Shown in pieces: positions 18,853 through 41,502 of a stretch of 41,502 bases of DNA. The stretch lies in the IMG/VR virus record IMGVR_UViG_3300019766_000003; one strand, written 5' to 3'. The notes below the pieces were generated by a model. It was not told where the DNA came from. It did no database searches and worked only from the letters and a program-made list of their open reading frames with translations. The position numbers and the translations under genes are program-made. Each line of letters begins with the position of its first letter. Position 1 is the stretch's first letter. The DNA comes from a virus.

Positions 18853-19590
18853 TTATATAAGCTTAAGCTGCACTGCATTTGTTTTTTGCTCCACAATGGA
18901 AGTGTCTACACTGTTGAAATCGTCACACATGCTTTCAAATATTGCATATGCCTCACTGTCTTTCTTTGGGTAGCTTTTCCCAAGCGAATACTGATGCACA
19001 GCCTGTCTTGAGACGCCTAGAATCGAAGCTACTGCGCTAAACCCTCCGTGGTGCCTTATTACAGATGCCACCTCCTCTTTACCCCTGTGTCTTCTTTTAA
19101 AGCCTGGAGCGTCTTTTCCAATTAAAGACATGTATTGGTCATCGCAAACTTCCTTTGCAACCCAAAAAGCCTCTTCGATTCCAACATTAAAAAACTCACC
19201 AACCGCCCTCTTCCCATCAAACTCTTTATGTATTTTTCTCTCCGCCAAAAAAGGCAAGCAAGATTCCATTCCAGCGTATTCCAAAAATTTTACTCCAGAC
19301 AAGCTTTCTATCTGCTTTACTCTAGCTTCTACAGTCCTAGTCGTAGCTCCGATCTTTACAAGGCCAAATTCATTTTTTGCAACATAAATAAAACCAGCTC
19401 GAGAACCACCAGAAACAACCTCCCCCAAAGGGAATCCAAAAGCTTCTATGTACTTTTTATAGATTCGCCTAGTTGGGACCGCTCCCTCAGAGTGCATTTT
19501 TAGTGTTGAATATGAGACGCCTGCAATCTTGGCAAGCTTTGGTATAGACATCTGCCGAAGTTCTTTTAGTTCGTATTTTTTGTGTTCCAT
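18853..19590 (-). CDS. Putative regulator: HTH - T5orf172 (GIY-YIG superfamily) - HTH
   Basis: Start MEHKKYELKELRQMSIPKLAKIAGVSYSTL (HTH). Central GFIYVAKNEFGLVKIGATTRTVEARVKQ...KIHKEF...GEFFNV (T5orf172/MUG113). C-terminal FSAVASILGVSRQAVHQY (second HTH). Confidence 0.7.
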   Translation of the reverse strand: MEHKKYELKELRQMSIPKLAKIAGVSYSTLKMHSEGAVPTRRIYKKYIEAFGFPLGEVVSGGSRAGFIYVAKNEFGLVKIGATTRTVEARVKQIESLSGVKFLEYAGMESCLPFLAERKIHKEFDGKRAVGEFFNVGIEEAFWVAKEVCDDQYMSLIGKDAPGFKRRHRGKEEVASVIRHHGGFSAVASILGVSRQAVHQYSLGKSYPKKDSEAYAIFESMCDDFNSVDTSIVEQKTNAVQLKLI

Positions 19591-19597
19591 GTGTTGT

Positions 19598-19625
19598 ACA
19601 ATACACCAAAACCAACAGTTGTCAA
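19598..19625 (-). promoter_or_regulatory. Leftward promoter TTGACA-16 nt-TATTGT, ending 7 nt before the ATG at 19590 (leaderless candidate)
   Basis: Hexamers read on the minus strand. There is no SD between the -10 and the ATG. Confidence 0.45.
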
Positions 19626-19653
19626 GCAATAAAATAATATTTACAAAAAGTTA

Positions 19654-26123: not shown

Positions 26124-26387
26124 GTGAAAGAAGAATATAAACAAGAGCAAATACACTTTGGGAAAAATAAAAGAGGACTTAGCTCAAAGATTGGCGAAGA
26201 TAGAATTATAGTCTTATACACTGACGGTGAGCACTACGGTCTTTCTTGGAGACACATTGTTGACGGTGAGGTTGTGCACAAAGAGGGACGTGCATTCACA
26301 CCGGATGCTATGGCTGCGGTTGTCGAGATGTTTGGACAGCTTAGAGGTCCTTTGCCTGAAGGCGCAACTTGGGATGAAGAACAATGA
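26124..26387 (+). CDS. Hypothetical protein (87 aa)
   Basis: GTG start 5 nt after GGAGGTG. Confidence 0.55.
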   Translation: MKEEYKQEQIHFGKNKRGLSSKIGEDRIIVLYTDGEHYGLSWRHIVDGEVVHKEGRAFTPDAMAAVVEMFGQLRGPLPEGATWDEEQ

Positions 26388-26656
26388 AAGATTTTATTAT
26401 TATATTTATATGCAGCTGCAACTTAGCCTTTTCATTTGTCTCAGACATTTCAATGGGAAAGTTGACAGATATGCAGAAGTCTAACTTTGAACAAATACAA
26501 ACAATCAAGTCAGAGCTTGCATACCACGAAAAGTACTTACAAGCATTAGACGTAAACGCAACAAGTGACCGTATTAGAAGCAAACAAACTAAAGAGATAG
26601 TTGACTTTATTTACAACGGGCTTGGCGGTGACAAACATTTAGGAGGGTGGGAGTGA
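26384..26656 (+). CDS. Hypothetical protein (90 aa)
   Basis: ATGA overlap. The start is uncertain; an internal ATG at 26453 is possible. Confidence 0.5.
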   Translation: MKDFIIIFICSCNLAFSFVSDISMGKLTDMQKSNFEQIQTIKSELAYHEKYLQALDVNATSDRIRSKQTKEIVDFIYNGLGGDKHLGGWE

Positions 26657-26754
26657 TCGTAATTGAGCTACCGTATCCACCTACGGTAAACCACTACTGG
26701 GGCAGCCGCAAGACGTTGACAACTTTAGCAGAGGGTGTTATCAATGTCCCATGA
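26653..26754 (+). pseudogene. RusA-like Holliday-junction resolvase, N-terminal 33-codon remnant
   Basis: GTGA-coupled start. VIVIELPYPPTVNHYWGSRK carries the RusA LPxPPS/TxNxYW signature, then stops inside the first codons of the HNH gene. Confidence 0.45.
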
Positions 26755-27569
26755 AAAAGATTAGCACAAAACTGATAAAAAAAGAGTATGAGAGGCTTGG
26801 CAGCATTTGGAAGGCAGCCGAGTCTCTTGGCATTTCTGGGCAAACAGTTCACAGAAGGCTTGTGGCTGCAGGAGTTGATACTTCTTTAAATGTTTTTAGC
26901 AAGGAGGACAAAAAAAGACTTATCGAAGACTACAGTCTGTATAGAGAAGAAAAAATGCTTGACTACCTTGCAATGGAAATGGGTAGGACAAAGCAATTTA
27001 TTTGTCGGCAGGCTGGAAAGCTTGGGCTAACAAAAAATAAAAAAAGAGGATACTATAAATTAGAAATATCTGGCAAAAAATTTGGAAGACTTACAGCTAT
27101 AAGGGAAACCGGAAAAAAGATAGATGGTTGTTTTGAGTGGTTGTTTTTGTGCGATTGCGGCAATGAAATAAGAAGAAAGGCTAGCCTTGTCTCAGGCGGG
27201 TTTGTTATGTCATGTGGTTGCCTACATCGAGATCGCACATCTAAGGCCTCTACGACACATGGGTTAAGCAAGTCTAGGGTATATAAAATATACAACGGAA
27301 TGATTAGTAGATGCAAACACAAGTCGAGAAGAGATTTTAAGTGGTATGGTGGAAAAGGAATTAAGGTTTGCGACGAATGGAAGAGGAGTTTTGAAAGTTT
27401 TGCTAATTGGGCTGCAGAAAGTGGATACAAAGAAGATCTTACAATAGACAGAATAGACAGCGACGGCGACTATTGCCCGGAAAACTGTCAATGGTTAACT
27501 CTTTCAGAGAACGTAAAAAAAGCAAATATGGAGAAGCATGAAATCTCATCACGCTCAAAAAAGAGATGA
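26751..27569 (+). CDS. Free-standing HNH homing-endonuclease-like protein with N-terminal HTH modules
   Basis: GRLTAIRE...WLFLCDCGNE...SCGC...YGGKGIKVCDEW...LTIDRIDSDGDYCPENCQWLTLSEN (HNH-type C-terminus). N-terminal SIWKAAESLGISGQTVHRRL. Confidence 0.75.
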   Translation: MKKISTKLIKKEYERLGSIWKAAESLGISGQTVHRRLVAAGVDTSLNVFSKEDKKRLIEDYSLYREEKMLDYLAMEMGRTKQFICRQAGKLGLTKNKKRGYYKLEISGKKFGRLTAIRETGKKIDGCFEWLFLCDCGNEIRRKASLVSGGFVMSCGCLHRDRTSKASTTHGLSKSRVYKIYNGMISRCKHKSRRDFKWYGGKGIKVCDEWKRSFESFANWAAESGYKEDLTIDRIDSDGDYCPENCQWLTLSENVKKANMEKHEISSRSKKR

Positions 27570-27817
27570 TTCAGAGCCGAGTATTGTAAGGGCGTTAAGG
27601 CAGGCTGGCGCATATGTACACCGCCTGAACAGGTTTGATTTTGGTTGGCTTTAGAGGGAAATGGTTTCCTATTGAAGTGAAATCTGGAGATAGGAAACTT
27701 ACCAGCAAGCAGGTGCAAATGATACTTGAAATGAAGAACATTGCACCTTTTTACGTAGCCAGAGACCCACAAGAGGCGTTGGATATAATATTTGAAAAGG
27801 AGGTAGAGAGTGAGTAA
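27538..27817 (+). pseudogene. PD-(D/E)XK (VRR-NUC/Hjc-like) nuclease split by an apparent +1 frameshift at the T4 run 27639-27642
   Basis: Frame 1 reads MKSHHAQKRDDSEPSIVRALRQAGAYVHRLNRFD and stops at 27652. Frame 2 continues (L)VGFRGKWFPIEVKSGDRKLTSKQ... Joined, they give the E...D...ExK nuclease motifs. GGAGA lies before the ATG at 27538. Confidence 0.55.
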
Positions 27818-28205
27818 GTTCTACTTAGGGAAAAGAAGTATCGGACGATTGAGCAGGGTTCACCCGCTATTGTCTGCTTGCGTGTGTCTGGCAATTAAAA
27901 AGACAACGCTTGATTTTACTGTTCTGGAAGGAGCTAGAAGCGTTGGACGACAAGAGCAACTTTACGAGACTGGTGCATCTCAAACCTTGGACAGTAAGCA
28001 CCTTGTGCAAGAGGACGGCTATTGTCACGCTGTAGACCTTGGACCATTAGTTGATGGCAAAGTACCTTGGGATACTTGGAACGCCTTTGTGGTGGTCAAT
28101 GAGGCCATGCAAAATGCTGCAGAAGAACTTGGAGTAACTATCACTTGGGGCGGAAGCTGGACGAACTTTAAAGATGGGCCTCATTTTCAAATTGAAGGAG
28201 TATAA
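27810..28205 (+). CDS. Endolysin, peptidase M15 (VanY-like / L-alanyl-D-glutamate peptidase family)
   Basis: GTG after AAGGAGG. LEGARSVGRQEQLYETGASQTLDSKHL...GYCHAVDL...WGGSW...DGPHFQ. Confidence 0.85.
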   Translation: MSKFYLGKRSIGRLSRVHPLLSACVCLAIKKTTLDFTVLEGARSVGRQEQLYETGASQTLDSKHLVQEDGYCHAVDLGPLVDGKVPWDTWNAFVVVNEAMQNAAEELGVTITWGGSWTNFKDGPHFQIEGV

Positions 28206-29090: not shown

Positions 29091-29126
29091 GCCCCCGTTA
29101 TTAATTTAGCGGGGGCACTTTTTTTG
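29091..29126 (+). terminator. Rho-independent terminator
   Basis: gcccccg-N12-cgggggc followed by a T-rich tract (actttttttgt). Confidence 0.7.
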
Positions 29127-29136
29127 TATTTTGTTG

Positions 29137-29165
29137 TTGACAAGGTTGCGGTGTCGCAATATGTT
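29137..29165 (+). promoter_or_regulatory. Promoter TTGACA-17 nt-TATGTT with the dyad TTGCG-GTGT-CGCAA (29146-29159) in the spacer
   Basis: Consensus -35 read directly. Lies 10 nt after the terminator and 50 nt before the pentapeptide-repeat gene. Confidence 0.55.
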
Positions 29166-29215
29166 GTATCTACAGGTCGAGGCAATTTTATAAATCTTAA
29201 AAAAGGAAAAGAGAG

Positions 29216-29761
29216 ATGAAGATTAAAATTATTTTAGAGCAGCACAAATTATGGCTCGAAACAGATGGAAAAGATGGAGAGCGCGCAGACCTCAGTCACA
29301 CAAACCTCCGTGGCGTAAACCTCAGTGGCGTAAACCTCAGTCACACAAACCTCAGTGGCGCAAACCTCAGTGGCGTAAACCTCAGTGGCGTAAACCTCCG
29401 TCACACAAACCTCAGTGGCGCAGACCTCAGTGGCGTAAACCTCCGTGACGCAAGCCTCAGTGGCGCAGACCTCAGTGGAGCAAACCTCAGTGACGCAGAT
29501 CTCAGTGGCGCAAACCTCAGTCACGCAGATCTCAGTGGCGCAAACCTTGACTTCTCTTGTTGGCCTCTCTGGTGCGGGTCTCTTGGTGTAAAAGTTGATG
29601 ACAAGTTTGTGTGCCAGCTATTTTTTCACTGGTGTAAACTTGACGTATCTGGGTGTTCTCCGTTCATCAGGTATGCGCATCGAGTAATTAGCAAAGGTTG
29701 GGCATGCCTTGGTAATCGCTTTTGTGACACAAGATCAGATATGAACAATAAAAGGCTTTAG
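29216..29761 (+). CDS. Pentapeptide-repeat protein (Qnr/MfpA-like beta-helix) with a Cys/Trp-rich C-terminal domain
   Basis: About 18 consecutive A(D/N)LxX pentapeptides (DLSHT NLRGV NLSGV NLSHT NLSGA ...), then FSCWPLWCGSLGV... Confidence 0.9.
   Translation: MKIKIILEQHKLWLETDGKDGERADLSHTNLRGVNLSGVNLSHTNLSGANLSGVNLSGVNLRHTNLSGADLSGVNLRDASLSGADLSGANLSDADLSGANLSHADLSGANLDFSCWPLWCGSLGVKVDDKFVCQLFFHWCKLDVSGCSPFIRYAHRVISKGWACLGNRFCDTRSDMNNKRL
29286..29550. repeat. About 17 tandem 15-bp units (consensus CCTCAGTGGCGTAAA) encoding the pentapeptide repeats
   Basis: Read directly. High nucleotide identity leaves multiple frames on both strands open. Confidence 0.9.
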
Positions 29762-29769
29762 GGGGTCAA

Positions 29770-29979
29770 TTGAACAAATATTTATCAACGCAAGAATCGG
29801 CTGCTGAGATCGGGGTGTCATCCTCGTATCTCCGGCAGGTTCTTGCTGGCAAGGCAAGTGGCAAGGTTAAGGGCGTTAGTATCGTAGGTGCTGTTAGCAA
29901 AGCAGGAAAGCACTGGATATGGCCCACTGATTTGGTGGATAAAATTAAAAAAGCGAGAGGTGAGAGATGGGTAGACTGA
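29770..29979 (+). CDS. Small HTH protein (excisionase/AlpA-like fold candidate)
   Basis: TTG start after AGGGGG. LSTQESAAEIGVSSSYLRQVLAG. Confidence 0.45.
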   Translation: MNKYLSTQESAAEIGVSSSYLRQVLAGKASGKVKGVSIVGAVSKAGKHWIWPTDLVDKIKKARGERWVD

Positions 29980-30263
29980 TTGAAGATGCGGAACACATTA
30001 TTTCAGTTGTTGAAAAGGCCTACGCAACGGCTGGTAGCGAACATGGTTTTCCAAAAATGCTTAAGACGAAAAAGGATGGCTGCCTATCATTTAAGGGCTG
30101 GGGGAAAGTGTCATTCGAACAAGCAAAGCGTGTGAAGATTCTTGCCGAAGCGTTGGAAGACATAATTGAAACAACAGACGGTAACGAATTGCGATCTAAT
30201 GCAGAGTGCGAGGCGTGTAATATAGCCAAACAGGCCTTAAAGGAGGCTGAGAATGTTGACTAA
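29967..30263 (+). CDS. Hypothetical protein (98 aa)
   Basis: RBS GAGGTGAGAG-ATG. Confidence 0.55.
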   Translation: MGRLIEDAEHIISVVEKAYATAGSEHGFPKMLKTKKDGCLSFKGWGKVSFEQAKRVKILAEALEDIIETTDGNELRSNAECEACNIAKQALKEAENVD

Positions 30264-30528
30264 GAAAGAAGCTCAGGATTTGGTGTGTCCGTATAATGCA
30301 GTAAAGCCAGTTACAACCAATTGCATACACGCACACTGCATGTCATGGCAGCACACTGGGCACAAATGCGCCAAATGCGGTGCTACAAACAGCTTTATGG
30401 ATATCGTAAAGAATTGGTTTAGAAGGCCAATTAGAGAGCAGCACGGTGTAGTCGTATGCACCAAGTGTAGCACAGGGGACAAAGAAGTCAGGGCCGAGCG
30501 AGTCGGTCGGTGTAAACTTTTGAAGTAG
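30253..30528 (+). CDS. Cys-rich small phage protein (91 aa)
   Basis: CPYN...CIHAHCMSWQ...CAKCG...CTKC...GRCKLL. Confidence 0.55.
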   Translation: MLTKKEAQDLVCPYNAVKPVTTNCIHAHCMSWQHTGHKCAKCGATNSFMDIVKNWFRRPIREQHGVVVCTKCSTGDKEVRAERVGRCKLLK

Positions 30529-30538
30529 GTGGTAATAG

Positions 30539-30742
30539 ATGACTAACGACATTGAAAAGTGCAAAATCTGTGGTGGCACTCCTACTGAAGAGAGTAGATA
30601 CGGAGCATATAACACGTGCGGCGGAGACTACCTAGCTTGTACGGTGTGCGGCATATGCACAGACGAGTTTGACACTGTCAGAGAGGCTCTTGACGAATGG
30701 AATAGAATCATGACCTATGGGGAGGAGAGAGAAAATGACTAA
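30539..30742 (+). CDS. Lar-family restriction-alleviation-like protein
   Basis: CKICGG...CTVCGICT...REALDEWNR fits the Lar pattern CPFCGG...C..CG...A..WNxR. Confidence 0.55.
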   Translation: MTNDIEKCKICGGTPTEESRYGAYNTCGGDYLACTVCGICTDEFDTVREALDEWNRIMTYGEEREND

Positions 30743-31112
30743 CGAAGAGTTGAGCTTGAAAGTGGCTGAGTTGCGTGGGGATAGACCTTGGAAGGTATAC
30801 GATTGTTTTGACCTTCTGTGCGCAACCGTCCGTACTGAAAAAGAAGCCAAAAATGCATGTGAGCAGCCTTGCTTTTCATACATTTATGCGCCTAAGAGTT
30901 ACTCCACCGACATGAACCACGCTATGGAGCTGGTGGAGGAGATGTGTGGAAGAGACACAGATTACGAGATAATGAGACGCTGGATAGAAGAAAAGCAGTT
31001 TGAATTTTGTTTTACACAAAAATGTGAACACTTTACAGGCGTTGATATTACACCAGCCCGTGCAATCTGCAAGGCGTACATCGAATGGCAGGAGATGAAA
31101 GATGAAGATTAA
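30735..31112 (+). CDS. Hypothetical protein (phage ABA-sandwich-like)
   Basis: ATG at 30735 after GGAGGAGAGAG. EELSLKVAELRG...YSTDMNHAMELVEEM. Confidence 0.45.
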   Translation: MTNEELSLKVAELRGDRPWKVYDCFDLLCATVRTEKEAKNACEQPCFSYIYAPKSYSTDMNHAMELVEEMCGRDTDYEIMRRWIEEKQFEFCFTQKCEHFTGVDITPARAICKAYIEWQEMKDED

Positions 31113-31473
31113 AAAGTGTCCATTTTGCGGTGGTAAAGACTTTTCAAAGTACGGAAAGTTTGTGGCAGATAAAAAGAAAAGAGACGTCCACGTGCATTGT
31201 CATGGGTGCGGTGCTTGTGGACCAGTTGAAGGTACCGAGCAGGATGCTGTCGAGGCGTGGAATAAACGAGCTGACGGATGGGTTCATGTGGACGATGCAT
31301 TGCCGGAGGAAGGAAAGGCATATCTGTGTCAAATTGAAATACAGGGGGACCTCGGACTGGAAAGGTGGATGGAAGTTGCGTATTTTGTCGAAGATGAAAA
31401 AGAGTTCCACAGACACGATTTCAAAGACAACGTAGGGATAATTGCTTGGCGACCACTGCCGGAAGCTTACTAG
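31102..31473 (+). CDS. Lar-like zinc-ribbon fused to a DUF551-like domain
   Basis: KKCPFCGG...HCHGCGACG...DAVEAWNKRADGW, then VDDALPEEGKAYLC...IIAWRPLPEAY. Confidence 0.65.
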   Translation: MKIKKCPFCGGKDFSKYGKFVADKKKRDVHVHCHGCGACGPVEGTEQDAVEAWNKRADGWVHVDDALPEEGKAYLCQIEIQGDLGLERWMEVAYFVEDEKEFHRHDFKDNVGIIAWRPLPEAY

Positions 31474-31577
31474 GTGGAATAGATATGTCAGACCTTCTTG
31501 ACATTGCATAATGGGATAGGCCGATTGAGTGTGATGGAAAAGAGTGGCGGTGTTAAAAAAAAGTAAGAGAGTGAAAA

Positions 31578-31793
31578 ATGGAAAAAGTTAAATCAATTGC
31601 GGCTCGTGTAAAGATTGAAGATGGACTGGAAACAACTGTAACTTTGACAGACTTGAAAGACGGTGTTTTTAAGTTGGAGTGTTCAACCCTTAGAGGCGAG
31701 AATGGATACACAATAACAAATCAAATATTGTGCGAAGAAACAATGCAAGCTGCTTACTCCTTGATTGGAGAAATGCTTGAAGGCGAAAGTTAA
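31578..31793 (+). CDS. Hypothetical protein (71 aa)
   Basis: ORF with a purine-rich leader. Confidence 0.55.
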   Translation: MEKVKSIAARVKIEDGLETTVTLTDLKDGVFKLECSTLRGENGYTITNQILCEETMQAAYSLIGEMLEGES

Positions 31794-31794
31794 T

Positions 31795-31953
31795 ATGAAA
31801 AATATAGCATTCGTAATATGGGTGCTATGTTGGTACAAGATATACTTTGTGCCGTTTGACCACAAAAAGTACAGACTTGACGCCGTTGCAATTGCTGTAG
31901 TCCTTGGAGTCGGTGTGTTGGCTGGTGTCGGATACTTGTTGTACGAAAAATAA
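31795..31953 (+). CDS. Small membrane protein (52 aa, two TM segments)
   Basis: TAATATG coupling. MKNIAFVIWVLCWYKIYFV...AIAVVLGVGVLAGVGYLLY. Confidence 0.45.
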   Translation: MKNIAFVIWVLCWYKIYFVPFDHKKYRLDAVAIAVVLGVGVLAGVGYLLYEK

Positions 31954-32044
31954 TAAAATCTTCTCAATAGCCCCTAATCGTTGACGGGGCAAGCCTCGGT
32001 AGAATCCTAAACTGCCGGGGCTTTATTAAAAAAAGGAGCGAGTG

Positions 32045-32581
32045 ATGTTTAAGAAAGGCGATAAAGTATTGGTAGAGGCGGTGGTTGTTGGCGAGATAGA
32101 CGAGGACAACGAGGTAGATGTGAAGATAAAAAGACGTTTTGATGGGCTTGAAAGATATCAACATGTTCGAGTAGAAGACGTTAAAAAAAGCACAGAACAA
32201 AAGTGGATTCCAGTTGAAGAGCGTTTGCCGGAAGAGACAAAACAATATGTTGTAACGTTAATTGACGCCTATGACGAAAAAGGGCGCGTTGATGTTGCCG
32301 ACATTGAGTATCACGGATACGGCGAGTGGGATGTGGCAGGAATCACAGAAGTCATTGCTTGGATGGAAGACGGTCTCCCAAAGCCTTATTCTCCACCTGT
32401 TAAACTCCGTGAGTCGTGCGATTTGTGCAAGCACTATGAAGAGTCTACAAAGTCTGGAAAGTGGATTTCAGAGGGGGAGATTGAAATTAAGGCTGATGCT
32501 TATTCAAGTGTTTGCTGGAAGACAAAGCAGTTTACACCAGAGCCGCATTTTATCAACGGTAAACCTTGCGACGAGGAATAA
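32045..32581 (+). CDS. DUF551-like domain protein (178 aa)
   Basis: AGGAG lies 6 nt before the ATG at 32045. KWIPVEERLPEETKQYVV...VIAWMEDGLPKPYSPP. Confidence 0.6.
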   Translation: MFKKGDKVLVEAVVVGEIDEDNEVDVKIKRRFDGLERYQHVRVEDVKKSTEQKWIPVEERLPEETKQYVVTLIDAYDEKGRVDVADIEYHGYGEWDVAGITEVIAWMEDGLPKPYSPPVKLRESCDLCKHYEESTKSGKWISEGEIEIKADAYSSVCWKTKQFTPEPHFINGKPCDEE

Positions 32582-32587
32582 AACAAG

Positions 32588-32617
32588 GCCCTCTGTTAGC
32601 ACAGACAGGGGGCTTTT
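32588..32617 (+). terminator. Rho-independent terminator
   Basis: 9-bp stem gccctctgt / acagggggc (one G-U pair), 8-nt loop, then TTTT. Confidence 0.6.
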
Positions 32618-32638
32618 ACTTTAAAAAAAGGGTTAATT

Positions 32639-32833
32639 ATGACGATTCCAGTTACACAAATAGAATTTTGCGACAAATGTGTACATAGAAGTATTAGGAG
32701 CAAGAACAGGTGGTATTGCCGAAGTCACGGTGCGCTTTATCATGTAAATAGGAAAATGGAGTCAATAACAACCACAGACGGCGTTCCAATCGTGTGCAAT
32801 GTGAGAAGCTCTTGCAAGATTATAGGGCGGTAG
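32639..32833 (+). CDS. Small Cys-rich protein (64 aa)
   Basis: CDKCVHRS...YCRSHG...CNVRSSC. Confidence 0.5.
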   Translation: MTIPVTQIEFCDKCVHRSIRSKNRWYCRSHGALYHVNRKMESITTTDGVPIVCNVRSSCKIIGR

Positions 32834-41379: not shown

Positions 41380-41502
41380 ATTAGCCAGTACCCACAGTTT
41401 GCCATTTATAAACATTTAGAATAAAGTGTATCAAAAGTTGACCGGAGGATTATATGGCACTTGTTGTCGGAACAGATACATATGCAGACGTTGCAACCGT
41501 AG
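41380..41502. repeat. Terminal direct repeat, copy 2 (identical to 1-123). Includes the duplicated promoter candidate and the first 49 nt of the connector gene.
   Basis: 123/123 identity with the window start. Confidence 0.95.

Follow-up and report, generated by a model that had tools for sequence, protein, structure and literature searches.

The usual annotation of phage pentapeptide-repeat proteins (PRPs) follows the model of Qnr and MfpA and labels them as probable inhibitors of gyrase or mimics of DNA. Whether this analogy is warranted, and which parts of such a protein carry its function, are the questions raised by a PRP gene in the viral sequence IMGVR_UViG_3300019766_000003 of IMG/VR, a stretch of 41,502 nucleotides that is called the window below. 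An initial annotation, made without database searches, had described this gene as a stand-alone, DNA-mimic-type moron with its own promoter and an operator-like dyad. Comparison with related phage sequences leads to a different picture. The gene belongs to a family with a characteristic architecture and a hypervariable repeat array, and both this assignment and the non-Qnr-like nature of the family are well supported.

Array length and its variation

The PRP gene, the parts of its product and the repeats within its array are as follows:

29216..29761, + strand: PRP gene, long allele, 181 aa
29219..29260, + strand: N-terminal capping helix, aa 2-15, with the family-invariant H10 and the near-invariant W13
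29285..29554, + strand: repeat array, 18 pentapeptide units that correspond to about 4.5 beta-helix coils
29549..29758, + strand: conserved C-terminal module (C-module), aa 112-181, D112-F-S-C-W-P117-L-W119-C120-G-S plus two helices carrying Q134 and H138
29310..29369 (ambiguous up to 29339-29398), + strand: 60-bp segment missing in the 161-aa allele, equal to one coil (four units, 20 aa)
29310..29338, + strand: 29-bp exact direct repeat GTGGCGTAAACCTCAGTGGCGTAAACCTC, first copy
29370..29398, + strand: the same 29-bp direct repeat again, second copy, 60 bp further on

The 181-aa product matches PF00805 with E = 6e-40 (134.8 bits against a cut-off of 20.2), and it possesses the features that define the pentapeptide-repeat superfamily, namely at least eight contiguous A(D/N)LxX units and a score above the Pfam gathering threshold. 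Tandem Repeats Finder detects a 15-bp period with 17.7 copies at 29283-29547, and in frame the array comprises 18 units of the form A/V/T-(D/N)-L-x-x at 29285-29554. With seven Cys and four Trp in the C-terminal ~70 aa, the protein is as first described, about 18 pentapeptides followed by a Cys/Trp-rich domain.

The DNA of the array is highly uniform. The sequence CCTCAGTGGCGTAAA is present four times, and the array uses only 15 distinct codons. The codon usage of the phage itself predicts 32.6, with 27 as the lowest value in 2000 simulations. Leu is encoded by CTC in 17 of 18 cases and Ser by AGT in 14 of 15, while each of these codons accounts for 11% of the codons for its amino acid genome-wide. 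Because this uniformity exceeds what protein constraint would impose, the units are related by recent duplication or conversion, in agreement with the recent expansion or homogenization that had been proposed. The array also yields long spurious open reading frames (ORFs) with PQWRK... and TEVCATEV... repeats, at 29251-29448 (+) and 29249-29524 (-), which gene callers could mis-annotate.

The nearest database protein (P0001, 161 aa) is the 181-aa PRP minus exactly 20 aa. Exact-protein look-up recovered the 181-aa protein from nine independent contigs (ENA/MEGAHIT, JGI and Logan assemblies) and the 161-aa allele from four (two JGI and two ENA assemblies). An exact-pattern scan with the 5' end of the gene returned one already-known contig in metagenome_contigs and zero in viral_contigs. 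Outside the array, the short-allele contig L001 has no mismatches to the window over 14,164 bp, and the two differ by a single 60-bp indel. The short allele is reproduced exactly by deleting any of 30 equivalent registers of the 60-bp segment, because the segment is bracketed by the 29-bp direct repeat. This repeat pair is a substrate for slippage or unequal recombination. Since a 29-bp repeat cannot confuse an assembly at k=141, and since each allele was obtained by more than one pipeline, the polymorphism is real. Copy-number variation, which the initial annotation had listed as a possibility, is thereby established, and the alternative of an assembly artefact can be set aside.

Two further short-allele contigs (L002 and L003) represent a slightly different haplotype, with 20 single-nucleotide polymorphisms clustered at 26497-26598. 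These fall in about 100 bp inside the ORF at 26384-26656, while the adjoining kilobases are identical, and the cluster looks like a recombination patch or a hypervariable segment.

Variation in repeat number is a property of the whole family. Among pairs of members whose N-terminal cap and C-module are at least 90% identical, 48 of 72 differ in array length, which extends the predicted variability far beyond the window. Without exception, these pairs differ by a multiple of 5 aa (5, 10, 15, 20, 25, 30, 45, 55 and 70). A preference for whole-coil steps of 20 aa was considered and rejected, steps of 5, 10 and 15 aa being equally common. One lineage in which the ends are 100% identical contains arrays of 62, 87, 107, 117 and 132 aa. 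To the same lineage belongs the cultured temperate Blautia phage Montmirail (ON453898.1, L153, 5720-6013), whose 97-aa protein has both ends intact and two pentapeptides. Seven copies are present in the genome of Blautia producta DSM 2950 (NZ_CP039126.1; L010-L013, L015, L058), of which three are identical with 117-aa arrays and one has the same ends with a 132-aa array. This implies that one cell line harbors several related prophages or elements that differ in array length. The 45 complete C-module hits have arrays of 1-18 units, with a distribution that looks bimodal (groups of 1-6 and 10-18 units), and across the whole family the array ranges from about 1 to 26 or more units.

The DNA of these arrays indicates how such changes arise. 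In 49 non-redundant arrays, the longest exact internal repeat has a median length of 45 nt, while the neighboring genes have none of at least 12 nt. In the same 49 arrays the median same-codon share among Leu codons is 95%, with the window array at the modest end of the range. The array gains and loses whole 15-bp units when slippage or unequal recombination takes place between its long exact DNA repeats, and its length changes faster than the ends accumulate point mutations.

Divergence between units is distributed unevenly among codon positions. The median proportion of synonymous differences (pS) is 0.06 and that of nonsynonymous differences (pN) is 0.19, with pN above pS in 65 of 78 arrays. 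Codons 4 and 5, which face outward, have a pN of 0.32-0.38 and a pS of 0.13-0.17, while pN is 0.05 and 0.014 at the inward-facing codons 1 and 3. Because these values come from repeats that undergo conversion, they are suggestive only.

Conserved ends of a phage family

The family architecture consists of an N-terminal helix (...L..H.KWL....GERADL), the pentapeptide array and a C-module beginning with (A)(D/N)LDFSCWPLWCGS. In an alignment of 64 full-length members, H10, P117, C120 and Q134 are invariant and W13, G21, D112, L118, W119, G121 and H138 are near-invariant, while conservation within the array is limited to the inward-facing Ala and Leu. When 155 non-redundant members are compared, P117, C120 and Q134 are still invariant and D112, L118, W119, G121 and H138 are at least 97% conserved. 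C115 is present in 74% of these proteins, and position 170 is occupied by His (75-83%) or Cys (11%), giving 86% for either residue.

An exhaustive search with the 72-aa C-module alone returned 441 clusters at 50% identity. With few exceptions these proteins are 80-230 aa long and end in the module. A word-index search with the C-module returned 10 short fragments only. Two long proteins in the exhaustive search, P0147 (2354 aa) and P0162 (636 aa), have 6-10 matched stretches each and are probably unrelated Cys-rich repeat proteins. The C-module has no match in Pfam, NCBIfam, PADLOC or the PDB sequences, and a Foldseek search of the PDB found no structural neighbor (best E = 2.7). A minority of members, among them P0004, P0010, P0034 and P0050 (243-280 aa), begin with a domain of ~95 aa without Pfam annotation in place of the capping helix, and this domain precedes a long array and the usual C-module.

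Confirmed loci of the family number 333 in IMG/VR contigs and 57 in species-representative genomes. Most of these genomes are Clostridia, and Desulfovibrio, Gammaproteobacteria, Bacteroidales and others are also represented. All four members that were looked up individually are in phage or prophage regions. Members are co-oriented with their neighbors and usually lie in an early operon, where Cro, Ant or excisionase precedes them and genes for DNA-end and recombination functions follow or surround them. At 95 loci, the neighbors include Mu Gam-like proteins (9), two Sak4-like families (6 each), a PDDEXK exonuclease (5), SSB (5), SNF2 (5) and, upstream, Ant (6). No conserved partner gene is present at these loci, where the commonest neighbor cluster occurs nine times, and thus the protein is expected to work without a dedicated partner. 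The gene in the window, unlike most members, is placed between the lysis and packaging genes.

The AlphaFold2 model, built with the family alignment, has a mean pLDDT of 86. It predicts a capping helix at residues 2-15 (pLDDT 88-96), a regular right-handed quadrilateral beta-helix at residues 24-112 (pLDDT >90) and C-terminal helices at residues 129-141 and 149-172. The confidence falls below 50 at residues 117-120, which belong to the most conserved motif.

Based on this evidence, the function of the protein may reside in its two ends. The gene would be the promoter-proximal member of a small accessory-gene cluster, and its product would be a cytoplasmic protein of a phage-specific PRP subfamily. 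Selection would act on the N-terminal helix, with H10 and W13, and on the ~65-aa C-module, whose invariant polar set of D112, C120, Q134 and H138 lies in and after DFSCWPLWCGS. The beta-helix between them would be a rigid insert of variable length, serving as a spacer, a steric block or a variable surface. Acting early in infection, the protein may engage a component of host or phage DNA transactions or defence through its conserved ends. A length-variable spacer fits the array better than a Qnr-like DNA mimic does.

Several observations weigh against this mechanism. No homolog of known function supports any target, and the model has its lowest confidence at the C-module motif, which leaves the geometry of the invariant residues uncertain. 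In addition, the gene in the window lies outside the early region and its promoter is only a candidate. The minimal two-unit forms could be decaying genes and not proof of a dispensable helix, and the enrichment of neighbors is weak, with a maximum of 9 of 95 loci per family. As a whole, the view of an early accessory protein that targets the host or DNA transactions, with specificity in its ends and the helix as a length-variable spacer or surface, is plausible, although our confidence in it falls somewhat short of even.

A related and more elaborate possibility, which we hold only tentatively, is that the protein is an 'accordion' effector. The N-terminal helix and the Cys/His C-module would again be the working ends, and the beta-helix would be a hypermutable ruler or surface, whose length and outward-facing residues are under diversifying selection in an arms race between phage and host. 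If so, the purpose of the variation might be escape from host sensors that recognize the protein, or a tuned reach toward its target, and the gene would represent a phage contingency locus built on a beta-solenoid.

It is also conceivable, though rather unlikely, that the array is neutral 'junk', a slippage-prone tract tolerated in an unimportant gene whose length has no function. In its favor, any multiple of 5 aa is tolerated, all unit-level indels are in frame and the arrays are homogenized at the DNA level. However, the ends are invariant across the 441 clusters and many phyla, and the reading frames are intact. Moreover, the inward codons are constrained while pN exceeds pS at the outward codons, and the distribution of lengths looks bimodal.

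The invariant residues of the C-module could instead form a small catalytic or metal center (Cys120, His138, Gln134 and Asp112), resembling a Cys-His hydrolase or transferase or a metal site, to which the beta-helix would present or select substrates. The conservation of this polar set among the 155 non-redundant members and the alternation of His and Cys at position 170 are consistent with such a site, as is the poor modeling of the motif as a monomer, which is expected for a site that depends on a cofactor or partner. Nevertheless, we regard this alternative as quite unlikely, given that the module has only ~65 aa and two helices, no structural neighbor in the PDB and no Pfam or NCBIfam family match. 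A classical four-ligand zinc site (C115/C120/H138/H-or-C170) was considered as well, and it is weakened by the variability of C115 and H/C170 in the 155-member alignment.

Comparison with DNA-mimicking proteins

The PRPs of known mechanism target gyrase (PMC8145042, PMC10886550), and the initial annotation had compared the protein with Qnr, MfpA, McbG and AlbG. In this role, a dimer would occupy the DNA-binding saddle of host gyrase or topoisomerase IV and either modulate supercoiling or protect against gyrase poisons. The PRP fold itself is confirmed by PF00805, the AlphaFold2 model and Foldseek, family members lie among DNA-metabolism genes, and the two C-terminal helices predicted by the model could mediate dimerization. 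The window PRP also resembles QnrB1, AhQnr, EfsQnr, MfpA, AlbG and McbG in overall size, at least in its long forms, and in having an alpha-helical C-terminus.

The closest relatives are nevertheless found elsewhere. A Foldseek search with the model retrieves solved PRPs at E = 1e-8 to 1e-7, with a root-mean-square deviation of 1.2 Å to 2o6w over 96 columns. Cyanobacterial Rfr-type PRPs rank best, while Qnr, MfpA and AlbG are weaker. Among the NCBIfam models, the protein scores 60.3 bits with Qnr against a cut-off of 240, 47.8 with MfpA against 360, and 25-43 with the Qnr subfamilies against 425-500. The top hits are Alr5209 (80 against 125) and HetL (69 against 260), both also below the cut-off. 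The Rfr-type proteins (Rfr23, 2o6w; Np275/Np276, 2j8k; Alr5209, 6omx; HetL, 3du1) are thus the best matches in both structure and sequence, and they share with the window PRP the regular A(D/N)LxX units, the right-handed quadrilateral beta-helix and the N-terminal capping helix. They differ in being cellular proteins without the DFSCWPLWCGS C-module, while the window PRP is phage-borne.

Each unit of a pentapeptide beta-solenoid adds a 90-degree turn and a rise of about 1.2 Å. The window PRP has 4.5 coils, in contrast to the approximately eight or more of the topoisomerase-protecting PRPs (PMC8145042). The latter are of fixed length, the Qnr models being fixed at 211-221 positions, while arrays in this family range from 1 to 26+ units. 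They also possess a single C-terminal helix that forms a head-to-head dimer, an electronegative, DNA-like surface and, in Qnr, functional loops. The window PRP has no such loops, and its two predicted C-terminal helices belong to a Cys/His module that has no match in the PDB and is unrelated to the single dimerization helix of Qnr and MfpA.

Surface charge had been proposed as a means of comparison with both Qnr/MfpA and Ocr/ArdA, and net charge provides no support for mimicry. The protein contains 18 D+E and 18 K+R, for a net charge of 0 and a pI of 7.0. The helix part has a charge of -4 over 111 aa. The family median is -4 in a range of -29 to +16, so that, with acidity judged from net charge only, no family-wide acidity is evident. 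Asn, Ser and Gly predominate at the outward-facing positions of the array, which form no conserved surface. Moreover, the complete short members, with arrays of 1-3 units, cannot form a beta-helix. Overall, a gyrase-binding mimic of the Qnr, MfpA, McbG or AlbG type is improbable.

Genomic setting

The window represents a complete tailed-phage genome of 41,379 bp with a GC content of 44%. Positions 1-123 are identical to 41380-41502, and this 123-nt end repeat shows that the genome is circular or terminally redundant. A megablast search with the PRP region found no nucleotide-level relative among deposited phages, and the portal protein is at most 34% identical to that of any cultured or deposited phage. 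All 13 related contigs carry the PRP gene, and no further close relative is present in the collections searched. The signals before the gene and the main genome features are:

29091..29126, + strand: intrinsic terminator closing the lysis cassette (10-bp GC-rich stem, 6-nt loop, U-run)
29137..29165, + strand: sigma-70-like promoter candidate TTGACA-17-TATGTT, 10/12 consensus match
29146..29159, no strand assigned: dyad TTGCG-GTGT-CGCAA inside the promoter spacer
29204..29207, + strand: Shine-Dalgarno AGGA, 8 nt before the ATG, as read from the sequence
1-14 kb: tail genes
After the tail genes, - strand: leftward early block with a Rad52-like recombinase, SSB and Gp157
After the leftward early block, + strand: rightward early and replication genes
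26751-27569: HNH endonuclease with an N-terminal HTH, immediately preceding the lysis cassette
27810-28205: endolysin, followed by a holin-like gene and a lipoprotein gene, and then by the PRP gene
29770..32833, + strand: accessory genes co-directional with the PRP gene, no terminator between
30539-30742 and 31102-31473, + strand: two paralogous Lar-like genes (phrog_599, PF14354)
30717-31112, + strand: Phage_ABA_S gene, flanked by the two Lar-like genes
32042-32581, + strand: DUF551 gene
3' of the PRP gene: run of small genes, then TerS, TerL, portal and capsid

The terminator (stem 29091-29116 plus T-run) is as strong as first stated, with a dG of -20.7 kcal/mol and z = -4.7; none of 200 shuffles is equally stable, and the sequence is identical across the 13 related contigs. 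The other two upstream signals fared differently. The promoter candidate is present as described, but its score is not above chance, the window containing nine 10/12 matches where simulations give 8.2 +/- 3.1. It is plausible by its position only, which is intergenic, directly after the terminator and 50 nt before the ATG. Likewise, the dyad exists, but an operator role finds no support. TTGCG-N4-CGCAA occurs as a single exact copy in the genome, and with one mismatch allowed there are four sites where 1.7 are expected, a count reached in 10 of 100 shuffles. A repeated operator was rejected on these grounds.

The gene does not stand alone as had been proposed. The next gene starts 8 nt past the PRP stop codon and no + strand terminator is predicted between the PRP gene and TerS, so the PRP gene heads a cluster that includes the two Lar-like genes. 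The Lar-like, Phage_ABA_S and DUF551 genes may together constitute an island with anti-restriction or accessory functions that separates the lysis genes from the packaging genes. Phage HNH genes often adjoin the terminase, which is not the case for the HNH gene of the window.

The moron label is also doubtful. A moron expressed constitutively from its own promoter in the prophage would benefit the lysogen, for instance by superinfection exclusion or protection from toxins, and the terminator followed by a -35/-10 match directly upstream of the gene, as well as the presence of other members in integrated prophages, would fit such a role. However, no integrase or repressor was recognized in a search across the complete 41.4-kb genome, no terminator follows the gene, the promoter score is at chance level and all related contigs carry the gene. 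Moreover, the prophage copies lie inside an early lytic operon, downstream of Cro, Ant or excisionase. This explanation is therefore very unlikely. As separate observations, Cro-like and N-antiterminator-like Pfam marks are present on L001, the contig identical to the window, and a 258-aa protein at the head of the leftward early block (18853-19629, -) has an N-terminal HTH together with a T5orf172/MUG113 (GIY-YIG-like) domain and a P22 Cro-like HTH, a fusion that is unusual among regulators.

Anti-restriction genes usually lie in early operons. Family members in early operons, and the position of the PRP gene as the first in a cluster that contains two Lar-like restriction-alleviation genes, might thus suggest a polyanionic DNA mimic in the style of Ocr or ArdA, directed against restriction-modification, BREX or other DNA-sensing defences. 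This is the least probable of the explanations, as acidic and basic residues are balanced, no sequence or fold similarity to Ocr or ArdA was found (the structure matches PRPs only, and there is no such PHROG annotation), two-unit forms cannot mimic DNA, and the PRPs McbG and QnrB were inactive in a BREX inhibition assay (PMC7261183).

Changes in PRP length have been encountered in other phages. In the P22-like phage L, a 15-bp deletion relative to ST64T removes one repeat of the early-left orf232, and the Caulobacter Riverwalk-cluster phage GB2A carries a 375-bp deletion in a PRP gene relative to RW. As in the window family, near-identical isolates differ by the in-frame loss of whole pentapeptides. 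In a tblastn search, however, the C-module has no match in L/ST64T or RW/GB2A, the sole match being Blautia phage Montmirail, and these proteins thus represent other PRP lineages. A further parallel is provided by intragenic variable number tandem repeats and contingency loci such as the repeat tract of E. coli tolA, in which in-frame units likewise vary in number between otherwise identical genomes through slippage or recombination (PMC3477136). The 60-bp indel within 14,164 identical bp is a polymorphism of exactly this kind, except that the window locus is in a phage and its array lies in a structured beta-solenoid. The literature contains no systematic description or functional study of phage PRPs of this type that we could find; the length changes in L/ST64T and GB2A/RW are mentioned in passing, and phages are absent altogether from a 2021 review of PRP structure and function.

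In conclusion, the novelty lies in a PRP subfamily that is specific to phages and combines a hitherto undescribed C-terminal module with a hypervariable solenoid. Two cautions follow for the annotation of such genes, namely that function should not be inferred from the repeat fold alone and that differences in repeat length between metagenome assemblies should not be dismissed as errors. The natural long, short and minimal alleles are ready variants for testing, and Blautia phage Montmirail together with the Blautia prophages offers a cultured and tractable system. Overall, the analysis of this large phage family points away from annotation based on Qnr and MfpA, and the conserved ends are presumably the functional parts of the protein.

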